A stretch of DNA of 64,000 bases, taken from positions 49,833-113,832 of the forward strand of contig CAZRPY010000002.1 in NCBI GenBank assembly GCA_964602245.1, in the 5' to 3' direction. Below are positions 19,815 through 58,540 of the stretch, piece after piece. How positions within the stretch are numbered: position 1 is the first letter of the stretch; each line of letters begins with the position of its first letter. Origin of the DNA: an uncultured Methanosarcinales archaeon. Lineage in GTDB: Archaea > Nanobdellota > Nanobdellia > Woesearchaeales > JACPIF01. Below the pieces are notes generated by a model. It was not told the DNA's origin. It ran no database searches and was given only the letters and a program-made list of their open reading frames with translations. The position numbers and the translations under genes were made by a program.

Positions 19815-20035
19815 TTAAAAACAAAATAATGCTAGTATTAATATCGATAATAATTAGCAGCTTAATTATAAGTGGATGTGCTGAAACACAAACCTTTAGC
19901 AAAGAAGATAAGATATATAATCCACCTGTAACTAGGGGTGATGAGAAGCAAAGCCCTAGTGCAATTATTAATGATAGCTTTATTGAGAACGAAGATGTAG
20001 GTTGCTCTGAGATTGACGAGCCAAAAAATTTTTAA
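19811..20035 (+). CDS. small lipoprotein
   Basis: Signal peptide ending in lipobox-like IISGCAE; 4-nt overlap with the tlpA-like gene. Confidence 0.4.
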   Translation: MIKNKIMLVLISIIISSLIISGCAETQTFSKEDKIYNPPVTRGDEKQSPSAIINDSFIENEDVGCSEIDEPKNF

Positions 20036-20291
20036 TTATAGATAAGCAAGGGCATGTGGAAAAGAGGTGTGCAAAACCACGTACCCTGCTCTCTTTTAAT
20101 ATGAATAACGTAGTCCATCTACCCAAAAAATAAACCCTTTTACAAAGCCTGTAAAACTTTACCATATATAAAGATTTTGCTTAAGCCATTCATAAGGCTT
20201 TTAAAGGATAACTGAAGAGTTAAACAAAAAGTATATATAGTTAAGAGGATATATAATTCTTAATTGCACTCTGATTTTTGGGGTTATAAAC

Positions 20292-20540
20292 ATGGCAAAA
20301 GTAAAACCAAAGGTAATTATCTATACTACTCCAACATGCCCCTATTGCAAGATGGCTAAGGAGTTTTTCAAGGTTAATAAAATAGAGTATGAGGATATTG
20401 ATGTTTCTACTAATAGGGAGGCTGCTGAGCATATGATAGAGAAATCAGGGCAGATGGGTGTGCCAGTTATAGAAGTGGGAGACCAGATGATAGTAGGGTT
20501 TGATAAGCCTGCTCTAAAGAAAGCTCTGGGGATTGCTTAG
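20292..20540 (+). CDS. glutaredoxin-like small redox protein (CxxC), paralog
   Basis: YTTPTCPYCKMAKEFF and GVPVIEVGDQMIVGFD; about 55% identical to 3965..4210 product. Confidence 0.75.
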   Translation: MAKVKPKVIIYTTPTCPYCKMAKEFFKVNKIEYEDIDVSTNREAAEHMIEKSGQMGVPVIEVGDQMIVGFDKPALKKALGIA

Positions 20541-20585
20541 TATAATTTTGGCAAGACTTCTTGTTAAATGCCCATAGGTTAAGCA

Positions 20586-20653
20586 AAGTTCAGGCGGCTC
20601 GCAAAACTGATGCCAAATCGAAGATTTGAAGAAATAATGAAAAGGCGGGTGTC
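20586..20653. repeat. left arm of nested inverted repeats bracketing gene 20654..21103
   Basis: aagttcaggcggctcgc (20586-20602) and aaaggcgggtgtc (20641-20653) are reverse complements of blocks at 21191-21207 and 21171-21183. Confidence 0.55.
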
Positions 20654-21103
20654 TTACTTTATGTCTAAAACTCTTACAGCTTTTTCAGGATCAACTCTAT
20701 ATGGTGATTGTTTTCCCTCGTAAAAATGATGTTGTCTTATTAAGTGTGCAATTGCTCCTGGAAATCTAAGTTCTTCATTAGTGGTTTGATTCCTCACAAA
20801 TAAATTCAAGGTGCTATTTGGCATCATGAAATCAACATCATTCCAAGGACAGGCTTGTCCACCTCTGTATGCCACTCCTCCTCCGAGATATTTTCCATCA
20901 ACAACTTTTCCATCTATTGTTGGGTAACCTATAGCACGAAGAAAGTATTCTATTCTATCGGCGATTTGCTCATGCGTTAAGCCTAATTTTCTAACGGTTT
21001 CATCATCTGCCCTAAGAACTTCATCTAATCTTTCAACATCTCCTAAAAAGCCACCCATGGATAATCTTCCTGGTTTCATTGATGCTTCTATAGTTTCATT
21101 CAT
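20654..21103 (-). CDS. hypothetical protein inside inverted-repeat cassette
   Basis: 149-aa ORF with no recognisable motif; tightly bracketed by GC-rich inverted repeats. Confidence 0.4.
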   Translation of the reverse strand: MNETIEASMKPGRLSMGGFLGDVERLDEVLRADDETVRKLGLTHEQIADRIEYFLRAIGYPTIDGKVVDGKYLGGGVAYRGGQACPWNDVDFMMPNSTLNLFVRNQTTNEELRFPGAIAHLIRQHHFYEGKQSPYRVDPEKAVRVLDIK

Positions 21104-21170
21104 ATTACCTTTAATATAAATTGGACTTTATAAATCTTTCGGTTATTTACTACTATTTAAAGACAACATA

Positions 21171-21207
21171 GATGCCCGCCTTTACTGCACGCTCGCCGCC
21201 TGAACTT
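21171..21207. repeat. right arm of nested inverted repeats
   Basis: gatgcccgccttt and gctcgccgcctgaactt; embedded in a GC-rich stretch 21165-21260 with cacgctcgc repeated. Confidence 0.55.
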
Positions 21208-21333
21208 TTTCGCTCTGCTCAAACCACGTTGCACGCTCGCTTCGCTCGGGTCGCTTAACAGGCATTCTAAAACAGCAAAATTTAAATATAAGTGTATTCA
21301 TTTGATTTAAAACGATACAGTTAAGGAGCTAAA

Positions 21334-21633
21334 ATGGCTGCAAGTGTCACTACACGCATACCAAAGGAGATGCTAGAGGAAATTGATAAATTTTCAGCTG
21401 AGAAGCATATGGATAGAGCTACAATGCTGCGCAACTTAATAGAGCAAGGACTATTGGATGAAAAAAAGAAGAAAGTATTATTGCAGTATAAAAACAGAAA
21501 AATCAGCTTGCAAAGAGCTGCTGAAATGCTAAATGCTGATCTTACAGAGATGGTTGATCTTATTGGAAAAGAGGAGCTGCATTTGGATTACAGTAAAGAG
21601 GAGTTAAGAGAAGATATAAAAGGATTAAGATGA
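21334..21633 (+). CDS. UPF0175-family putative antitoxin
   Basis: 99 aa; helix-rich, KISLQRAAEMLNADLTEMVDLI segment typical of UPF0175; 4-nt overlap with downstream DUF3368 gene. Confidence 0.5.
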   Translation: MAASVTTRIPKEMLEEIDKFSAEKHMDRATMLRNLIEQGLLDEKKKKVLLQYKNRKISLQRAAEMLNADLTEMVDLIGKEELHLDYSKEELREDIKGLR

Positions 21634-22130
21634 ATATTGTTAGCAATACATCTCCCTTAGTTTTTCTTACTAAAATTGGAAAGCTAAATTTCTTGAATGA
21701 GTATGATCTATTCATTCCTCAACAGGTTTATGATGAAATAATTCTTTGGAAGAATAAGGGCAAAGATGACTATTTAATATTAGAGAACTGGATTAAGAAA
21801 ACTAATGTTAGTGTAGAAAAGGTCTCTATTCTTAAAAATCTGCCACAAAGCTTAGGAGAGGGTGAAAAAGCTGCTATCTCATTAGCCATAGAGAAAAATG
21901 TGAAAATTATACTAATAGATGAGAGAAAGGCCAGAATAACAGCTAATTTATTGGGGCTACAACCTAGAGGGACTATTGCTATTATTCAAGAAAATTTATT
22001 AGAGAATAAAATAACAAGGAAAGAATGCAAAATCTTAATATTAGAATTAATTAAAAAAGGTTACAGAATAAAAGAGGAGTTAATTGCTGAGTTTTTGCAA
22101 GAGTTTGAGGGGAAAAGTGAGGAAACTTAA
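21630..22130 (+). CDS. DUF3368 PIN-like domain protein (putative toxin)
   Basis: TSPLVFLTKIGKLNFL N-terminus and ILIDERKARITANLLGL segment match DUF3368/PIN-like; canonical partner of UPF0175. Confidence 0.55.
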   Translation: MNIVSNTSPLVFLTKIGKLNFLNEYDLFIPQQVYDEIILWKNKGKDDYLILENWIKKTNVSVEKVSILKNLPQSLGEGEKAAISLAIEKNVKIILIDERKARITANLLGLQPRGTIAIIQENLLENKITRKECKILILELIKKGYRIKEELIAEFLQEFEGKSEET

Positions 22131-22444
22131 ATCTAAGTGATGAATAAAATCAATATTAAAACAAGAAAAGTGGTCTGAGGTGAGTGGTGTTTGTTATTGA
22201 ACTTTTCCTTTTTCTATTAACTATTTGTAAACAATCTCTTTATTTAACCTTCCATTTTTGATTTGTATTTTAGCTTCTACAAATTTTTCGCACTTTGGAC
22301 AGATATGATGTATTTCCATCCAGCCCTCATCTATTGTTTAAACCACTGTCAAAATTTAGTTCCCCTCCTATGTACGTAAAGTTTATATATAAGTTATATT
22401 TAATATATTATATCTAGAGGATATAACTAACTACGTTAAACAAA

Positions 22445-22663
22445 ATGGAAGTCAAAGTTAAAGCTAAGAAGATTGGAGGCTCTATAGGAGTAATAATTCC
22501 AAAAGAGATAGTGGAAAGTGAGAGAATTTCTGTAGATGATACTCTAAAAATAGATATTGAAAAAACTGACGATATCAGCTTTCTGTGGGGAAGAGGCAAG
22601 GACATTAAGAAGTCGACTGATCAGATAATGAGAGAGATAGATGAAGGAGAAATAGATGATTAA
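22445..22663 (+). CDS. SpoVT/AbrB (MazE-like) antitoxin, paralog 3
   Basis: KKIGGSIGVIIPKEIV; upstream tttatatataagttata motif related to the other two pairs. Confidence 0.65.
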   Translation: MEVKVKAKKIGGSIGVIIPKEIVESERISVDDTLKIDIEKTDDISFLWGRGKDIKKSTDQIMREIDEGEIDD

Positions 22664-23027
22664 AAGATTATTCTATGATACCTATGCTCTTATAGAAATA
22701 TATAAAGAGAATCCTAATTACGAGAAGTACAAGAAAGGCTTTAAAATTATACTTAATAAATTAAATCTGCTAGAGTTTTCTTATTTTTTATTTAGAGAAG
22801 GAAGAGGAAATGAAGCTAAGGAAATAATTAGTAGATTCTCAAAATTTAATATTGACTATGATAACGAAATATTACTTGAAACTGCAAAAATGAAATTTGA
22901 GCATAAAAAAGAATTTTTAAGTTATATTGACTGCATAGGATATCTTCTAGCCAAAAAGTATAATGTAAAGTTTCTTACAGGAGATGAAAAGTTTAGAGAT
23001 ATGGAGAATGTAGAGTTTGTGAAATAG
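22656..23027 (+). CDS. PIN-domain (VapC-like) toxin, paralog 3
   Basis: FYDTYALIEI, YIDCIGY, FLTGDEKF; 8-nt overlap with antitoxin gene. Confidence 0.6.
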   Translation: MIKRLFYDTYALIEIYKENPNYEKYKKGFKIILNKLNLLEFSYFLFREGRGNEAKEIISRFSKFNIDYDNEILLETAKMKFEHKKEFLSYIDCIGYLLAKKYNVKFLTGDEKFRDMENVEFVK

Positions 23028-23167
23028 CAATTAAGATTCTTAACTCAAGAATAATATCTCTTTTGACTAAGAATACCAATTCTAAAGAAATCTCTAACTA
23101 GCATGATTATAAGCTTCCTCTATTATTAGCATAAAATATATAAATAAAAGTCTATTTCTATAGTAAT

Positions 23168-23785
23168 ATGAGGATTTTAAATAGAAACTATCAGAAAACT
23201 ATGCTAGATATAGTAGATGGTGTTAAAGTTGAAGGGGATAAAGTTCATATTTATGGAAGGATTTTGAGATTTAATGTGTTTGGTGAAGAAAAAGCAAGTT
23301 TGTATCATTATCTGATTCATGATGCACAGACAGGTAACATAATTTCTGAACATTCTTGGAAGAAACTTGAACGTTTAGCTCCCATTGATTGGGTACTCTA
23401 CTCAATATTAGGCATTGTTAGTGCTGGAGCTGGCCTAATACCTATATTAAGAAGAGTAACGCCATCTGGTAGATTAAGAATAAAAAATTCAGAAATTTAT
23501 AATAGGAATGTTGCTGTTTATATGCACAATGATTTGGCTTATTGGAGAGAAAGAGCAGAAAAGATTCCTGTTTACCAAGGTTCTATAGATGAAGTAGCTG
23601 AAGAACTAGGAGTTCAGTTAAAGCGTGTTGATACTAACAACCCTATAAAGTACATTCGAGCAGAAGACCACTTCTTACTGCGGGTAAATGCATTTCTAAT
23701 GGGCGCAGATGCTGTTGTCCATTCTCAGCCAGGATCTTCAATTGGAACACCTGTTAAAATAATCAAACGCAAACGAGCTAAGTGA
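23168..23785 (+). CDS. hypothetical protein with one TM segment
   Basis: 205-aa ORF; hydrophobic stretch WVLYSILGIVSAGAGLIPIL. Confidence 0.3.
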   Translation: MRILNRNYQKTMLDIVDGVKVEGDKVHIYGRILRFNVFGEEKASLYHYLIHDAQTGNIISEHSWKKLERLAPIDWVLYSILGIVSAGAGLIPILRRVTPSGRLRIKNSEIYNRNVAVYMHNDLAYWRERAEKIPVYQGSIDEVAEELGVQLKRVDTNNPIKYIRAEDHFLLRVNAFLMGADAVVHSQPGSSIGTPVKIIKRKRAK

Positions 23786-23844
23786 TTGTTACTCACTTTT
23801 AAGTATCATAACATTTATAAGTAACTAATATATTCTTTTAGTAT

Positions 23845-32468: not shown

Positions 32469-32918
32469 TAATCTTACATTTAATTTGCAAAGATTTCAAA
32501 AGAATCAAATTTCTTAACAAGACTTTAGAACCAAAACATCCTATAGGTTTACAAGACCCAGAACGAGTTGATGTCTAAAACCTTTTGGGCATTAAGAAAC
32601 AATGGAACAGCTTTTAGGCTGTTACTGTAGTTGTAGAAGTAGTCATATTGAAAATTCCATATACTGCAAAAACTTTATTTTTATTATTCATCCAATATAG
32701 AAAAGATAACTTATATTTAAAATTTGCTATGGGCATGGTTAAAATAGATTTATCTGTCATATAGCAATTTTAACTTTAATTTCATATTTAAGCTCTTATA
32801 GAATTAGTTAATAAAGCTTTTCTTATGAAATGGCTATTATGCTCCAGAACGAAACGAAGTGGAGTGAGAATGCAATGGGGGGTTCGAGCCGAAGGCGAGA
32901 AAGTCCGCCGTAACCCAC

Positions 32919-33623
32919 CTATAATTCAATTTCAGATTGATTTTCATCAAGAATTTTATAAGTTATATCTCCACCACAAAATTTTTGAACTAAATCTTTC
33001 AATTCTTTTGTAGCGTCTTCAATTTCTTGTTTTGTTACAGGAAGAAGTCCCTCTATAACAAGAAAACAATTCTTTGTTTCTTCTGTAAACTTTGTCCTGT
33101 CAGCCTCACGCCAATTCCATCTTCTGCAAATTGCAGAAATATTATCCTTGTAAATAACTTCTCCTGCGTGAGGCGGTCTTGGTTCTTTATCTCCAAGGAG
33201 CAAAACCGCTGGTTCGTTTGGTTCTGCAAAGGTTAAAACAACATCTCCCTGTATTTTATCTACATCTTCGCCACCAACAGGAACCATGTGTTTAAGGGAG
33301 ATGAAATTGTAAATATCAACCAATTTATTGATATGTCTCAAATTTACTCCTTGTAGAACCAATCTATAAAGATTTTCAACAGAGGATTTGTTTTCTTTCG
33401 GTTTTGCTCCGAAAGCAGAATAGGTTTTTCTCCAAACATCTATTTTTGGAGTTTGGGACAAAGTTTCAGTATTATATTTTGCTCTGATATTGTTTTCTTG
33501 TTCTCTGATTTCTTTTTGGACTTCTTCCTGTGTTCCGGAATTGTCCAGATTTTTACAAATTACAACTCCGATTGTTGAACCGGGAAACTTCTCAAAAATT
33601 TTGTGGTCAATTTTAAATTTCAT
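32919..33623 (-). CDS. B3/4 domain protein (PheT-editing-domain-like, tRNA-binding)
   Basis: DVWRKTYSAFGAKPKE...NLYRLVLQG...VDIYNFISLKHMVPVGGEDVDKI pattern typical of B3/4 domain proteins. Confidence 0.6.
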   Translation of the reverse strand: MKFKIDHKIFEKFPGSTIGVVICKNLDNSGTQEEVQKEIREQENNIRAKYNTETLSQTPKIDVWRKTYSAFGAKPKENKSSVENLYRLVLQGVNLRHINKLVDIYNFISLKHMVPVGGEDVDKIQGDVVLTFAEPNEPAVLLLGDKEPRPPHAGEVIYKDNISAICRRWNWREADRTKFTEETKNCFLVIEGLLPVTKQEIEDATKELKDLVQKFCGGDITYKILDENQSEIEL

Positions 33624-33767
33624 GATGTTATATTATTGAGTAAGATTATAAACATTTTGCTCTTGGCGGGCGGAGGCGGATTGCATATAACCCTTGTTAT
33701 ACATACTGAACCATTGATGGTTTGCGGAGTTTTTTCTTCCAGAAAACTTATGAGTTCTGAGCTTTAC

Positions 33768-34121
33768 TTATTTTCTTCTGTAACCTAATTTTTTATTATA
33801 GGTTTTGTGGTCTATTACATCAAGAATAAAAGCAATAATTTCTATTTCAGTTTCTCCGTCTGTCAGCGTATAGAGCATGCGCCAAAATTGCGGAAGTTCA
33901 ACCCTAAAAAGATTTGTAACTCCATATTTTGATTTGTATTCATCTGGAATCAGTTTTTTTGCTATTGGATTTCCATAATGCATGTTCAATTTAATAAGCT
34001 CAATTTTCTTATTAACAGCATTAAGAATCATGCTTTCAGTCTTTGAATGCGGAGATTGCTCATTAAGATATTTGTAAACTTCTTCTGCCTCTTGGGAAAA
34101 AATTACTCTTACTTTTTTCAT
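33768..34121 (-). CDS. RelE/ParE-family toxin-like protein
   Basis: LFRVELPQFWRMLYTL...IEIIAFILDVIDHKTY resembles RelE/ParE/YoeB core; 4-nt overlap with upstream gene. Confidence 0.55.
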   Translation of the reverse strand: MKKVRVIFSQEAEEVYKYLNEQSPHSKTESMILNAVNKKIELIKLNMHYGNPIAKKLIPDEYKSKYGVTNLFRVELPQFWRMLYTLTDGETEIEIIAFILDVIDHKTYNKKLGYRRK

Positions 34122-34396
34122 AATTCGAGACCTTTTCTTATTGCTCGTCTCAAATTCGGATTTGTATTATGAATCCATGTAATTCCTTTGAGGCTTACTG
34201 CAATTTTATTACTTCTTTCCAAATATTCAAGAATTACCTTGAGAACATTATGGTTAACCTGTTTAGGCAATCTTCGCTTAAGATCGGCAACAGTTATTAT
34301 GCTTCCCTCCATAGTTTTTAGGACATCTTCTACCATTAACACAGTGTTCAAAGTAGGTGAATGCTCTGGCTTTTGTTCTTGTATTATTTGTGACAT
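34118..34396 (-). CDS. putative cognate antitoxin / small DNA-binding protein
   Basis: 92-aa ORF translationally coupled upstream of RelE-like gene. Confidence 0.4.
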   Translation of the reverse strand: MSQIIQEQKPEHSPTLNTVLMVEDVLKTMEGSIITVADLKRRLPKQVNHNVLKVILEYLERSNKIAVSLKGITWIHNTNPNLRRAIRKGLEL

Positions 34397-41884: not shown

Positions 41885-42820
41885 ATGAAAAATTATAAGC
41901 CGACTTTTGATGCGATAATGAAGGACGTGAGTAAGGTTGTTGTAGGACAGAATGATGTTATTGAGCAGCTGCTTATTGCTATATTATGCAATGGGAATGC
42001 ACTGCTTGAGGGCTATCCTGGACTTGCAAAGACTTTGTCTGTTAAAACAATAGCTGAATTGCTAGACTTGAAGTTCAGCAGGATACAGAACACACCTGAT
42101 TTAATGCCTTCTGATATTATTGGAACTTATATTCTTGAAGAATCTGGAGGCAAAAGGCAGTTTAAGTTCCAGCAGGGGCCAGTATTTGCCAATATAGTGC
42201 TTGCAGACGAAATTAACAGGGCAACACCTAAGACACAGTCTGCATTATTGGAGGCGATGCAAGAAAAGCAAGTTACAGTTGGGAATCAGACTTTTAAGCT
42301 GGATCTGCCATTTTTTGTGTTAGCAACACAGAATCCTATAGAGCAGGAAGGGACATATCCATTGCCAGAGGCACAGGCTGACAGGTTTTTGCTAAAGATT
42401 AAAGTTGTCTATCCTAGTGTGGAAGAAGAAAAAGAAATTGTTGAGAAATATGCTGTTGAGCAGAAAGAGGTCAGGCTTAAGCCTGTGTTGGGCAAGAATC
42501 ATGTATTGTCAATGCAAGAGATTACTAGAGAAGTGCCAATTGCTAATGATATCAAGCAAAGGGCTTTAAAGATTGTAACAAGCACAAGGGCTAATAAAGA
42601 GCTAATACAGTATGGAGCTTCTCCAAGAGCTTCTATAGGAATAATTTTAGCTGCAAAGGCTAGAGCTTTAATTAAAGGCAGGAATCATGTCAGTATGGAA
42701 GACATAGAAGCAATGGCGTATCCTGTATTAAGGCATAGAATAATATTAACTTTTGAAGCTGAAAGAAAAGGGATAACAGCTGATGATGCAATAAAAGAGA
42801 TATTGACTAAAGCAAAGTAG
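41885..42820 (+). CDS. MoxR-family AAA+ ATPase
   Basis: VVVGQNDVIEQLLIAILCNGNALLEGYPGLAKT Walker A context, DEINRA Walker B, MoxR-specific C-terminal region. Confidence 0.9.
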   Translation: MKNYKPTFDAIMKDVSKVVVGQNDVIEQLLIAILCNGNALLEGYPGLAKTLSVKTIAELLDLKFSRIQNTPDLMPSDIIGTYILEESGGKRQFKFQQGPVFANIVLADEINRATPKTQSALLEAMQEKQVTVGNQTFKLDLPFFVLATQNPIEQEGTYPLPEAQADRFLLKIKVVYPSVEEEKEIVEKYAVEQKEVRLKPVLGKNHVLSMQEITREVPIANDIKQRALKIVTSTRANKELIQYGASPRASIGIILAAKARALIKGRNHVSMEDIEAMAYPVLRHRIILTFEAERKGITADDAIKEILTKAK

Positions 42821-42844: not shown

Positions 42845-43101
42845 TTGCATTAACGACGCTCATTTCGAAAATCAAAGATTTTCGAGACTAGGAAATTCTC
42901 AATTTCCTATGCTACGTGAGCTGTGCGAGTAGTCCGCTTTCGATGATGGAACTTTTCATGTTGCGGACAGGTTGAAGAACTATGTTCCGAGACCTTAGGA
43001 AGCAGGGCTTCCTACAGGTTTGACAAAGTGTGAAGATACCCAAGAAAATCTTTGATTTTCTGGGCACAAAAAATCTAAAAGATTTTTTAGTGAGTGCAAA
43101 T
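42845..43101 (+). repeat. copy E of TTGCAT..GCAAAT element, strongly expanded (about 257 nt) with several extra hairpins
   Basis: cttgcattaacgacgc...gctgtgcgagtagtccgctttcgatgatggaacttttcatgttgcggacag...gtgcaaatt; inserts contain tcgaaaatc/gattttcga, aggaaatt/aatttcct, aggaagc/gcttcct, gaaaatc/gattttc stem-loops. Confidence 0.6.
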
Positions 43102-43145: not shown

Positions 43146-44000
43146 ATGGCTATTGAAACTGAATTTCTGGACCAATTGAATAAATTTAGCTTAGTAGTGA
43201 GGAAAAGGGTAACTTCTACACTTTCAGGGGCTAAGAAGTCTATTCGCATGGGAAGAGGATTGGCTTTTGCAGACCATAGGATTTATGCACCAGGTGATGA
43301 TATAAGGACAATTGACTGGAAGGTTTATGCCAAGACAGATGATCTTTATGTAAAACAATTTGAGGAAGAAAAGAATCTTACTGTGCATGTTATAATAGAT
43401 GCCTCGCATAGCATGAATTTTGGTGACAAGGTAAAGAAGTTCGAATATGCATCAATGCTTGGATTAGGTTTTGCATACCTTGCCTTAAAGGAAAATGAGA
43501 AGTTCCAGTATGCCATATTCTCTGATAAGATTGAGATTTTCCAGCCAAGAAGAGGCATGTCGCAATTAGTAGGAATGCTTCACGAGCTTAATAACACAAA
43601 GACTAAAGGGTTTTCTAACCTAAAAGAGGCTGTTTTTCAGTATAAGAAAGTGATAGGCAGTAAGGCATTAATAGTAATAATATCTGATTTCTTGTTTAAG
43701 ATTGAAGATATTATTGAAACATTGTTTTATCTTGGCAATCATGAGATTAAAGTAGTGCAAGTGCTTGATCCTGTTGAAAAAGAGCTTAAGATGGAAGGAG
43801 ACTATACTTTGAAAGATAGCGAAACTAATGACAGCTTAAGGACTTTTGTAAGCCAAAGGCTAAGATTAGATTATATGAAAAGACTTGATGAGCACTGCTC
43901 AAGAATCCATGAAGTCTGCAATAAGCTGGACATTGAGTATTATCTTGTAACTACTGACACTCCTATTTTTGATGCGTTCTATGGGATGCTGGAGAAGTGA
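43146..44000 (+). CDS. DUF58-family protein (VWA-like, MoxR partner)
   Basis: DIRTIDWKVYAKTDDLYVKQFEEE...VIIDASHSM pattern diagnostic of DUF58. Confidence 0.8.
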   Translation: MAIETEFLDQLNKFSLVVRKRVTSTLSGAKKSIRMGRGLAFADHRIYAPGDDIRTIDWKVYAKTDDLYVKQFEEEKNLTVHVIIDASHSMNFGDKVKKFEYASMLGLGFAYLALKENEKFQYAIFSDKIEIFQPRRGMSQLVGMLHELNNTKTKGFSNLKEAVFQYKKVIGSKALIVIISDFLFKIEDIIETLFYLGNHEIKVVQVLDPVEKELKMEGDYTLKDSETNDSLRTFVSQRLRLDYMKRLDEHCSRIHEVCNKLDIEYYLVTTDTPIFDAFYGMLEK

Positions 44001-47642: not shown

Positions 47643-47755
47643 GGGCTCATAGCTCAGCCTGGTAGAGCACTTGACTCTTACTGAACCAAGTTCAGGCCTT
47701 TTGAACTGGTTCAAAAGTAATCAAGGGGTCCTGGGTTCGAATCCCAGTGAGCCCG
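47643..47755 (+). tRNA. tRNA-Lys(CUU) with 39-nt intron at canonical 37/38 position
   Basis: Manually folded cloverleaf. Acceptor GGGCTCA/TGAGCCC, D-arm GCTC-AGCCTGGTA-GAGC, anticodon stem CTTGA/TCAAG, loop C-T-CTT-A. Intron spans 47681-47719 and contains two hairpins. Variable loop GGGTC, T-arm CTGGG-TTCGAAT-CCCAG, discriminator G. CCA is not encoded. Confidence 0.7.
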
Positions 47756-48458
47756 TTTTATATTCTTGAAGTTTTAGGATGTTTTTAGGATTAGAAAATC
47801 CAATTAATTGGGTATATTGCTCTATTTTTTCGTGTCCGCTTAAGTATAAATAGTTAGTAATGTACGGACGTTTAGTAATAGAGTGTATCATTGCACAATC
47901 TGTCTTAATACTAACCTTTAATCCAAGCAAATTAAAAGCCTTTTGACAATCTTGAATAAGTTTCTTACTGGCAAAGTTAAGTTTAACGACTGGGTAATTG
48001 CGCATCTTGATTTGGAAAGAACCGTCAGAATCAATTAATCCTCTTAAACACGCTCGAATAAATTTCGTATCACTCCAAATAACGATTGGCAGTCCGATAT
48101 TATCTTTTCTGCCTCTTGGCAATCCAATAATAGTAGTATAGAATTCAAATAAACCTTTTGAGTCTCTTATCAAAGCACATGTATTTTTCTTTTTAATTAG
48201 AAAGGAGAAATTAAGATTATAAAGTTCCTTTTTTAAGTTTTTTACGTAAATTTCATAATAAGTTCTATCAGAAGTAGCATTACCATAGCATTGTATCTCA
48301 TTGGATGTTGACGTTTTCCTTATAGTTTGATGTAGGCAACCATCACCAACCATAATTCCAATATCTTCAGCGAGAGCTTCATTCATCTCTGAAGGAAGTG
48401 TGAGACCTCTCAATAAGTCTTTTCTACTGAAATTTAATCTTGATAAATCGAATTTCAT
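47721..48458 (-). CDS. free-standing double-motif LAGLIDADG homing endonuclease
   Basis: Two LAGLIDADG motifs (IGIMVGDGCLH and LRGLIDSDGSF) in 245 aa; 3' end overlaps the tRNA-Lys 3' exon antisense by about 35 nt. Confidence 0.75.
   Translation of the reverse strand: MKFDLSRLNFSRKDLLRGLTLPSEMNEALAEDIGIMVGDGCLHQTIRKTSTSNEIQCYGNATSDRTYYEIYVKNLKKELYNLNFSFLIKKKNTCALIRDSKGLFEFYTTIIGLPRGRKDNIGLPIVIWSDTKFIRACLRGLIDSDGSFQIKMRNYPVVKLNFASKKLIQDCQKAFNLLGLKVSIKTDCAMIHSITKRPYITNYLYLSGHEKIEQYTQLIGFSNPKNILKLQEYKTGSLGFEPRTP

Positions 48459-56578: not shown

Positions 56579-58540
<1,962 letters not shown>

Follow-up and report, generated by a model that had tools for sequence, protein, structure and literature searches.

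How accessory genes are gained and shuffled in the tiny, fast-changing genomes of DPANN archaea is poorly understood. The locus described here poses the question for a single gene: a reading frame for a protein of 149 amino acids (aa) stands between nested inverted repeats, which a first-pass annotation likened to the marks of a mobile cassette. Did these repeats serve to move the gene, do they act in its RNA, or are they the traces of an old rearrangement? The window, by which we mean the whole 64-kb stretch of DNA that was analysed, has 33.4% GC overall, its genes have named homologues mostly in Woesearchaeota, and its single tRNA has an intron; the last two features mark it as DNA of a DPANN archaeon of the Woesearchaeota type. 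With somewhat less than even confidence, we favor the reading that a non-autonomous, self-contained and relocatable single-gene module of about 0.7 kb lies here, with the nested repeats as its terminal and sub-terminal repeats. Its main rival is a neutral by-product of rearrangement; an RNA panhandle is the weaker one.

Layout of the locus

The reading frame has as neighbors a glutaredoxin gene (20292-20540) and, beyond its other end, a UPF0175/DUF3368 toxin-antitoxin pair (21334-22130), both on the plus strand. The limits of the module around it follow from a block found at 88-92% nucleotide identity on two other contigs (L118 and L119), with fainter similarity reaching out to about 20562 and 21275. 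The features are as follows.

20544-22377, no strand: accessory segment, comprising the module of the 149-aa gene, the UPF0175/DUF3368 pair and 247 nt of noncoding DNA; missing from close relatives
20563-21275, minus strand: whole module of about 0.71 kb (promoter, 149-aa gene and both repeat-bearing flanks); left end (36 nt) CTTGTTAAATGCCCATAGGTTAAGCAAAGTTCAGGCGGC, right end GCCGCCTGAACTTT...GCTTAACAGGCATTCTAAAAC
20566-20584, no strand: outermost left arm, AATGCC-CATAG-GTTAAGC, from the chained alignment; it pairs in the predicted folds of both strands
20585-20598, no strand: outer left arm, AAAGTTCAGGCGGC, half of a perfect 14-nt inverted repeat
20608-20646, plus strand: relic of the 3' end of a ThiI-like gene, the former convergent neighbor, closed by an upstream stop codon
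20641-20653, no strand: inner left arm, AAAGGCGGGTGTC, directly next to the stop codon, which reads TTA on the plus strand (20654-20656)
20654-21103, minus strand: 149-aa reading frame, a conserved hypothetical protein
21104-21155, minus strand: promoter, with TATA box TTTATAAA at 21134-21127, a BRE-like CGAAAG and the upstream motif TAGTAGTAAA at 21155-21146
21171-21183, no strand: inner right arm, GATGCCCGCCTTT, weakly conserved
21186-21196 and 21230-21240, no strand: two copies of the direct repeat TGCACGCTCGC, inside a cluster of CGCTC motifs
21195-21208, no strand: outer right arm, GCCGCCTGAACTTT, 100% complementary to 20585-20598 over 14 nt
21249-21266 (or to 21263), no strand: outermost right arm, GCTTAAC-A-GGCATT(C), the right limit of the block common with L118, where L118 homology begins at 21266

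Inverted repeats and chance expectation

The repeat strings quoted in the first-pass annotation all lie where it placed them, and its description of them stands with one correction. The outer pair, given as 17 nt, has a perfect 14-nt core; its full length was overstated, being complementary at 15 of 17 positions, and the 'gctcgc' tails are a direct repeat on the same strand. The inner pair (20641-20653 with 21171-21183) does bracket the reading frame, with 11 of 13 positions complementary, nine contiguous pairs and two mismatches, both transitions, and its left arm ends, as described, exactly at the stop codon. Beyond these two a third, outermost pair was newly found at about 20566-20584 and 21249-21266. 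The right arm indeed sits in GC-rich DNA with a direct repeat: the right flank (21166-21259) is the GC-richest stretch (100 nt) of the window, at 62%, TGCACGCTCGC recurs there, and four of the 12 CGCTC motifs on the plus strand of the window fall at 21190-21243. The gaps between the helices form loops of 42/11 and 0-1/40-47 nt.

Could such an arrangement arise by chance? Perfect inverted repeats of at least 14 nt within 2 kb number six in the window against a mean of about 1.2 per shuffled window, so that the 14-mer by itself is weak evidence; one such repeat per 64 kb is what shuffling leads one to expect, and one of 200 shuffles of the 250-nt flanks attains the single 14-mer. The chain of three colinear blocks fares differently. 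None of 2000 composition-preserving shuffles of both actual intergenic flanks attains its score, and in a window-wide scan weighted by base rarity it ranks second with 36.4 bits, which the top chain of one in 60 shuffled windows attains. An unweighted count of chained 9-mers across the window does not single the module out; the signal comes from the GC-richness of the arms within a 33% GC genome. The repeats, then, are real: the chained and GC-weighted tests rule out a chance origin. Together with an invertible switch and convergent terminators, both weighed below, chance belongs to a set of explanations that we regard as very unlikely.

The encoded protein and its promoter

The cargo belongs to a widespread family. 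The 35 homologues of the 149-aa protein come mostly from unlabelled metagenome contigs and, where named, from Woesearchaeota and Nanoarchaeota, and many bacterial relatives share 27-41% identity with it. A search for exact matches to the copy of the protein encoded in the window returned no contig. Invariant residues of the family form the motifs Q83-x-C85-P-W87 and H120-L-I-x-x-H125-x-F-Y-E-G. Searches of Pfam, NCBIfam, PADLOC and PHROG returned no match, and the AF2 model, a confidently predicted fold (pLDDT 95), has no neighbor in the PDB.

The promoter elements are kept ahead of the homologues in L025, L027/L113, L028, L032, L118 and L119. The TATA box ends 23 nt before the ATG, which points to a leaderless or near-leaderless mRNA, and T-tracts follow immediately after the stop codon. 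The arms lie upstream of this conserved TATA box on one side and downstream of the stop codon on the other; they therefore bracket a complete expression unit, and stand outside the transcription unit that the conserved promoter sets. A second, AT-rich TATA-like sequence occurs at 21292-21281, about 25 nt upstream of the outermost arm. No frame of a small reading frame in the GC-rich flank is conserved between the window and L025.

A hypervariable slot in related genomes

The first-pass annotation had proposed a comparison with relatives for presence or absence of the cassette, and the outcome agrees with its expectation. In the related loci L107-L111 the glutaredoxin is 94-95% identical at the aa level and the flanking DNA 72-82% identical at the nucleotide level; they align to window positions 20035-20543 and then 22378-23023, with 123 unrelated nt between. 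In these close relatives (about 80% nucleotide identity) the glutaredoxin gene is directly followed by an AbrB/PIN pair, and 20544-22377 is wholly absent. The surplus DNA of the window amounts to 1.83 kb, namely the module, the toxin-antitoxin pair and the 247 nt of noncoding DNA. In L112 the same slot is occupied by a Fic/HEAT gene and an insertion sequence (IS), which has no significant similarity to the window flank and no homologue in the window, and a second indel, a 205-aa reading frame at 23168-23785, lies two genes beyond the slot. These comparisons show that the slot downstream of the glutaredoxin gene is hypervariable and empty in close relatives. On the right, the indel relative to L107 takes in the toxin-antitoxin pair as well, so that a clean empty site of the module by itself is not available from the window. 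A 17-nt direct repeat around that pair (21277 and 22378) was considered and set aside as essentially common TATA promoter sequence.

Copies beside other genes and a putative native locus

Three contigs from the same 90% protein cluster as the 149-aa protein (L118, L119 and L120; sources, as listed, SRR22387885, ERZ4903072 and ERZ28563625) carry the gene with about 165 nt of upstream and about 90 nt of downstream DNA at 88-92% nucleotide identity, beside different neighbors. Positions 1197-1883 of L118 correspond to window 21266-20585 at 87.9% identity and sit between a 70-aa ORF/RibA and a DUF131 gene, while positions 64-641 of L119 correspond to window 21154-20578 at 91.5% and are followed by a different convergent reading frame. 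L120 has the same downstream end as the window, next to what is probably the same type of glutaredoxin, and its upstream part is replaced from codon 9. These contigs show that the same module and flanks adjoin different genes in at least two other genomes, and that the expression unit, about 0.71 kb long, has at least three different left neighbors and two different right ones, the same ends being reused.

Where do these ends fall? The right limit of the common block coincides with the outermost arm in the window and L118, and the left limit lies at GCTTAAC or about 20 nt past it in all copies. The block common to the copies thus ends at or near the outermost arms, which agree with the block ends within about 10 nt in L118, L119 and L120, the repeats being imperfect and, in L118, degenerate. 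The extreme ends are the least conserved part of the module. Of the mobile cassette proposed at first, then, the empty or otherwise filled slot in relatives, the same gene and flanks beside different genes, and the end of homology at the repeats all stand; the mechanisms named for it, discussed below, are not supported. The changed neighbors could also reflect other genes inserting beside a static module.

More distant relatives point to a possible source. In L113/L027 (70% identity) the gene appears to occupy its native place: an Lrp/AsnC regulator lies on one side and an intact, convergent ThiI-like gene on the other, with glutamine synthetase adjacent. Homology between L113 and the window takes in the promoter and about 90 nt ahead of it (score 73 against 24±4 shuffled). 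In L025 (ERZ27254767 k141_503913, with downstream sequence to +56 nt; 85% aa identity) the entire 170-nt upstream region, GC-rich part included, is common with the window (88 against 24±4). Downstream, the relic in the window is homologous to L025 (34 against 18.8±3.3; 1 of 500 shuffles), and the L025 sequence in turn to the 3' end of the intact ThiI-like gene in L113 (2 of 500 shuffles); compared directly with L113, the window relic is not significant (177 of 500). This relic occurs in all module copies, and by traveling with the module it indicates movement as DNA from an L113-like locus.

L025 has no inner pair and no start of the outer downstream arm within its contig, and holds a diverged homologue, AAAAATCCAGGTGGC, of the outer right arm, which argues that the repeats are specific to the clade found in several contexts. 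Among distant homologues (50-70% identity) the neighbors vary, and no flanking repeats beyond chance were found in L002-L004, L027 and L030-L038. The upstream arms sit in ancestral regulatory DNA (shared with L025 and, for the proximal 90 nt, also with L113) and are therefore not imported ends. Delivery by a MITE, which the first-pass annotation had suggested, is contradicted by this noncoding DNA ancestral to the gene.

An invertible switch, or inverton, deserves mention here, since inverted repeats of 13-14 nt around some 600 bp fall in the inverton size class. The gene is convergent with its downstream neighbor in all four copies, no flipped form was seen, and no recombinase domain appeared among the 59 window proteins scanned; moreover, flipping a complete unit of promoter and gene would switch nothing obvious.

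Decay of the arms and a possible neutral origin

The main rival to the relocatable module holds that the blocks are a by-product without present function, created by rearrangement or template switching (quasi-palindrome correction) as the gene left its native locus and subject to neutral decay thereafter, while ordinary illegitimate recombination and the turnover of genes keep changing the neighbors in a hypervariable region. We consider it somewhat unlikely, though the condition of the arms lends it weight. GTTAAGC of the outermost left arm is kept in L119 and L120 and degenerate in L118, and the outer left arm AAAGTTCAGGCGGC is found in all three with one or two C>T changes. Its right partner GCCGCCTGAACTTT is identical in L118 and missing from L119 and L120, and the inner left arm reads GACGCCCGCCTTT (gene orientation) in the other three copies. 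By pair, complementarity in L118 is 12/14 for the outer arms (two C>T, downstream arm), 9/13 for the inner and about 4/7 for the outermost. L119 has lost the upstream outer arm and retains 10-11/13 in the inner pair against its own downstream arm, and L120 has lost the upstream arms of both the outer and inner pairs. In these last two copies the gene stays while upstream arms are gone, and the breakpoints responsible, at about -75 and +24, fall elsewhere within the unit.

The differences within arms are all single transitions without a consistent strand, and no compensatory pairs occur among the four sequences. In the downstream flank the arms vary at 1/13 and 2/14 positions against 10/42 in the loop, and are only slightly better kept. 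Both arms of each pair also have partial ancestral counterparts in L025 and L113, from which small changes or templated correction could suffice. Against a neutral origin, one event would hardly give three separate colinear blocks, and template switching over some 600 nt is unusual. The same left boundary in three contexts, and the same right boundary in two, would likewise be unexpected under random breakage.

Other repeat-bearing genes in the window

Two further structures deserve notice. A toxin-antitoxin pair at 33768-34396 lies between the arms of a 19-nt repeat, the upstream arm being placed ahead of the TATA box; as a second repeat-bracketed module in the window, it was counted in favor of the relocatable-module reading. 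In a B3/4-domain gene (32919-33623, minus strand), the coding sequence has six complementary blocks of 11-16 nt, nested, colinear and almost perfect, that link its 5' and 3' halves. The predicted fold of its mRNA has -196.9 kcal/mol against -149.9±7.5 for shuffles (z -6.25), and the blocks are nearly unchanged in L115 and L116 despite about 79% identity at third codon positions. Contigs labelled Woesearchaeota, Patescibacteria and Kerfeldbacteria encode the protein at 86-94% identity, each time among different neighbors, and the gene has the appearance of a further single-gene module that spreads horizontally and pairs end to end. This nested-repeat structure at 32.9-33.6 kb is more striking than that of the 149-aa module.

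Possible pairing in RNA

A weaker rival places the function of the repeats in RNA: a long transcript across both flanks, either sense from the TATA-like sequence at 21292-21281 or antisense by read-through from the glutaredoxin gene, would be closed by the three helices as a panhandle, serving to stabilise, insulate or process the RNA. The 716-nt unit does fold better than shuffles (z -2.9 sense, -2.6 antisense), with all three helices in the minimum free energy folds of both strands. Short perfect blocks with unrelated, unequal loops are the pattern expected from selection for pairing, sense transcription could begin at the outermost arm, given the TATA-like box ahead of it, and the B3/4 gene shows that such structures exist and appear selected in this organism.

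Several observations nevertheless lead us to regard the panhandle as unlikely. The conserved proximal promoter predicts a near-leaderless mRNA that would lack the upstream arms, T-tracts come right after the stop codon, and L119 and L120 keep the gene without those arms. Compensatory changes are missing, and the changes that wobble pairing would tolerate disagree on strand: the two inner-arm changes of the window give G.U only on the plus strand and the two outer-arm changes of L118 only on the gene-sense strand, so that neither RNA strand is favored. Rfam 15 at its gathering threshold found nothing at 20500-21340, where matches were at chance level (E above 1.7), and the geometry is not that of a bulge-helix-bulge.

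Specific RNA classes were examined and rejected. Halves of a split or permuted tRNA were suggested by GTTAAGC/GCTTAAC, whose 7 bp equal the length of an acceptor stem; no D or T arm exists on either strand, and ARAGORN found no tRNA match at the module. The loops of 42/11 and 0-1/40-47 nt are unsuited to an intron with a bulge-helix-bulge. The GC-rich right flank was also considered as a C/D-box or other small RNA, an idea dismissed because the flank has no box pattern and its RNA fold is no better than shuffles.

Local folding likewise disposes of the convergent terminators that the first-pass annotation had named as its own counter-explanation. Some 600 nt separate the arms of each pair, and the flanks show no local fold, each doing no better than shuffles or even worse (as DNA, the right flank falls behind all 200), and a terminator scan found no GC-rich hairpin with a T-run at either flank.

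Tests against known mobile elements

If the repeats were the ends of a familiar element, further copies, a target duplication or an enzyme might be expected. No further copy of any arm was found in the 64-kb window, a part of a 140.7-kb contig (up to two mismatches), and in 405 kb of related loci the arms occur only within the module copies themselves; within that DNA, the copy search proposed in the first-pass annotation has a negative outcome. No direct repeat stands directly outside the ends in the window, L118 or L119, the ends being known to a few nucleotides and a 2-nt duplication thus possible. A domain scan of 59 window proteins, covering 54 of the 63 reading frames of at least 110 aa, returned no transposase, integrase or recombinase domain, Phage_integrase included, and IMG/VR held no match for the right arm or the 149-aa protein. 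With attC sites also lacking in the window, the specific mobile mechanisms first named find no support.

Three apparent leads were rejected. Other GC-rich islands of the window do not form one repeat family with the module flank, being unrelated to it, and a 15-nt match at 57949-57964, which falls within gyrB, is a coincidence. The idea of the module flank as an IS end arose from similarity between the L025 flank and the region upstream of the L112 transposase (37 against 22.4±3.3), which the window flank does not share.

An integron-type gene cassette bounded by attC sites was taken up in view of the integrons known in DPANN archaea (Ghaly et al. 2022, PMC9668308). The outermost arms do fit the core-site consensus (GTTAAGC to GTTRRRY, GCTTAAC to RYYYAAC), and toxin-antitoxin pairs such as those nearby are typical cassette cargo. 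We scanned both strands of the whole window by pattern and pairing for attC sites, defined as imperfect hairpins of 50-150 nt downstream of a gene with R''(RYYYAAC)/L'' and L'/R'(GTTRRRY) boxes, and accepted both box pairs within 45-150 nt; the scan gave 0 sites and no cluster, and so refutes a canonical attC cassette. A single R''..R' candidate exists, at 21249-21327; it lacks L boxes, and its fold is not more stable than that of shuffles (z +0.4). The module has its own promoter, and neither IntI nor another tyrosine recombinase was found among the 59 proteins scanned. We hold this explanation to be extremely improbable.

A possible history of the module

Returning to the relocatable module, we propose the following history in outline. 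The unit would have originated at an L113-like native locus, in the order Lrp/AsnC regulator, gene and convergent ThiI-like gene, and would have carried with it some 170 nt from upstream together with the 3' tip of its neighbor. In its present form it has a GC-rich region upstream, a TATA promoter of its own, the 149-aa gene and what little is left of the former downstream gene. Complementary blocks may then have arisen at both ends in the lineage that became mobile, where they might bring together or mark these ends so that a recombination activity provided in trans can act on them. The piece could have been cut out and reinserted, or swapped, as a whole among intergenic slots that also gather toxin-antitoxin pairs. 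Present-day copies may be inactive. We keep this reading tentative because of the missing target duplication, other copies and enzyme, and because of the decaying repeats.

A broader and still more doubtful conjecture, to which we give slightly less credence than to the RNA panhandle, is that DPANN archaea, and perhaps CPR bacteria, carry undescribed promoter-bearing single-gene modules. Their ends would be joined by nested long-range complementary blocks, as a panhandle of single-stranded DNA or RNA, and they would be excised and reinserted in trans by a route distinct from integrons and IS elements; the 149-aa module and the B3/4 gene would be two members.

The case is of interest because a complete expression unit can be traced from its native locus (L113) to several new places, with the scar of its old neighbor, and the inverted repeats that bound it fit no known mobile-element family. 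If the repeats are handles of the move, they would represent a new and simple way to make a resident gene portable; if they are scars only, they still mark a recombination hot spot beside toxin-antitoxin modules.

Comparison with known systems

Long-range pairing of RNA ends is familiar in archaea from rRNA processing stems with bulge-helix-bulge motifs and from the interplay of 5' and 3' UTRs in haloarchaeal mRNAs. The module is alike in that nested helices formed by segments several hundred nucleotides apart enclose a whole gene. It differs in having no bulge-helix-bulge, arms upstream of the promoter, no covariation and a distribution limited to a narrow clade.

Template-switch or quasi-palindrome mutations usually span tens of bases. 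From partly complementary sequence they can make short inverted repeats that are perfect, and L025 and L113, when compared with the window, suggest that this happened here; the module, however, spans 500-700 bases and its three blocks would require several events.

Non-autonomous IS derivatives, both MITE-like elements and 'transporters', resemble the module in their short, imperfect terminal inverted repeats, small size and want of a transposase of their own, as well as in the passenger gene, the varied contexts and the absence from the matching site in relatives. The module departs from them in showing no target-site duplication, one copy in 64 kb and no visible cognate autonomous element. 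Its repeats are three unequally spaced blocks, the upstream ones in ancestral regulatory DNA, and its termini are its least conserved part.

Integron cassettes are usually promoterless and are expressed from Pc. The module recalls them as a single small movable gene in a slot that also holds toxin-antitoxin pairs, and its 7-nt end motifs fit GTTRRRY and RYYYAAC. In contrast to them it has its own promoter, no self-folding attC, no array of sites and no integrase, and its complementary partners flank the gene, where an attC forms one downstream hairpin. Set beside these systems, the module has the look of a relocated gene cassette that belongs to no known type.

A promoter block shared by homologues of the 149-aa gene

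The promoter of the 149-aa gene contains a conserved block, TAGTAGTAAA-N(8-10)-(C)GAAAGATTTATAAAG (window 21127-21155, minus strand), that is also located upstream of the gene's homologues on contigs L025, L027/L113, L028, L032, L118 and L119, the last two of which carry other copies of the module. The block occurs once more on contig L004 (4141-4180), ahead of another position, as a 42-nt match of 86% identity. It may represent an operator and TATA box common to a small regulon. On L113, the homologue is adjoined by glnA and an Lrp/AsnC regulator.

Accessory genes near the module

Adjoining the module is a UPF0175/DUF3368 (PIN-like) gene pair (21334-22130, plus strand), for which PADLOC gives a match to its candidate defence system PDC-S70, the 166-aa protein scoring an E value of 5e-29. 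The close relatives L107-L111 are without both the pair and the module. A second lineage-specific insertion, in place of which L107 has 250 nt, lies two genes away at 23024-23799, and its 205-aa ORF gave no family match.

23168-23785, plus strand: ORF of 205 aa

Thiol-redox genes are unusually dense across window 1599-24500, comprising AhpC/TSA, DsbD, thioredoxin-like, DsbH-like, glutaredoxin and thioredoxin reductase-like genes, and among them are small PIN or toxin-antitoxin modules at 1599, 7655, 13602, 21630 and 22656.

Nested complementary blocks in a B3/4-domain gene

The window's strongest long-range inverted-repeat signal, at 75 bits against no more than 37 bits in shuffles, belongs to a B3/4-domain gene whose coding sequence holds six complementary blocks of 11-16 nt each, nested and colinear.

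32919-33623, minus strand: B3/4-domain gene (PF03483), flanks 32834-33691
32973-32988/33592-33607: complementary block
33037-33050/33518-33531: complementary block
33057-33070/33489-33502: complementary block
33087-33097/33456-33466: complementary block
33197-33208/33399-33410: complementary block
Near the centre: sixth complementary block

The mRNA fold has a z of -6.25, and an Rfam search of the gene returned no match. On L115 and L116, which carry relatives of the gene, the blocks are nearly invariant, whereas third positions diverge by about 21%. The encoded protein retains 86-94% identity on contigs that bear the labels Patescibacteria, Kerfeldbacteria and Woesearchaeota, where the gene has different neighbours. 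The gene's GC-rich 3' flank, ACTTTCTCGCCTTCGGCTCGAACCCCCCATTGCA (32853-32886, minus strand), resembles about 34 nt of the module's GC-rich flank, ACTTTTTCGCTCTGCTCAAACCACGTTGCA (21203-21236, plus strand), with a score reached by 6 of 300 shuffles; the likeness may reflect a motif common to both flanks, or chance.

Other repeats and an intron-containing tRNA in the window

Two copies of a self-complementary 17-mer, GAAAATCAAAGATTTTC (42867-42883 and 43044-43060), stand 160 nt apart in a spacer of 325 nt that separates a 311-aa ORF (41885-42820) from the next, 284-aa ORF (43146-44000). Further along, an intron-containing tRNA missed by ARAGORN is overlapped at its 3' end by a homing-endonuclease ORF on the opposite strand.

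47643-47755, plus strand: tRNA with intron, 113 nt (Rfam, 59 bits)
47721-48458, minus strand: LAGLIDADG homing-endonuclease ORF, 245 aa

A 19-nt inverted repeat of 95% complementarity (33758-33776/34461-34479) brackets a gene pair that is toxin-antitoxin-like by layout, the 117-aa protein of which has no Pfam match.

33768..34396, minus strand: two-gene module, 92 aa and 117 aa

The downstream repeat arm overlaps the stop codon and the upstream arm is located upstream of the TATA box, the same layout as that of the 149-aa-gene module.
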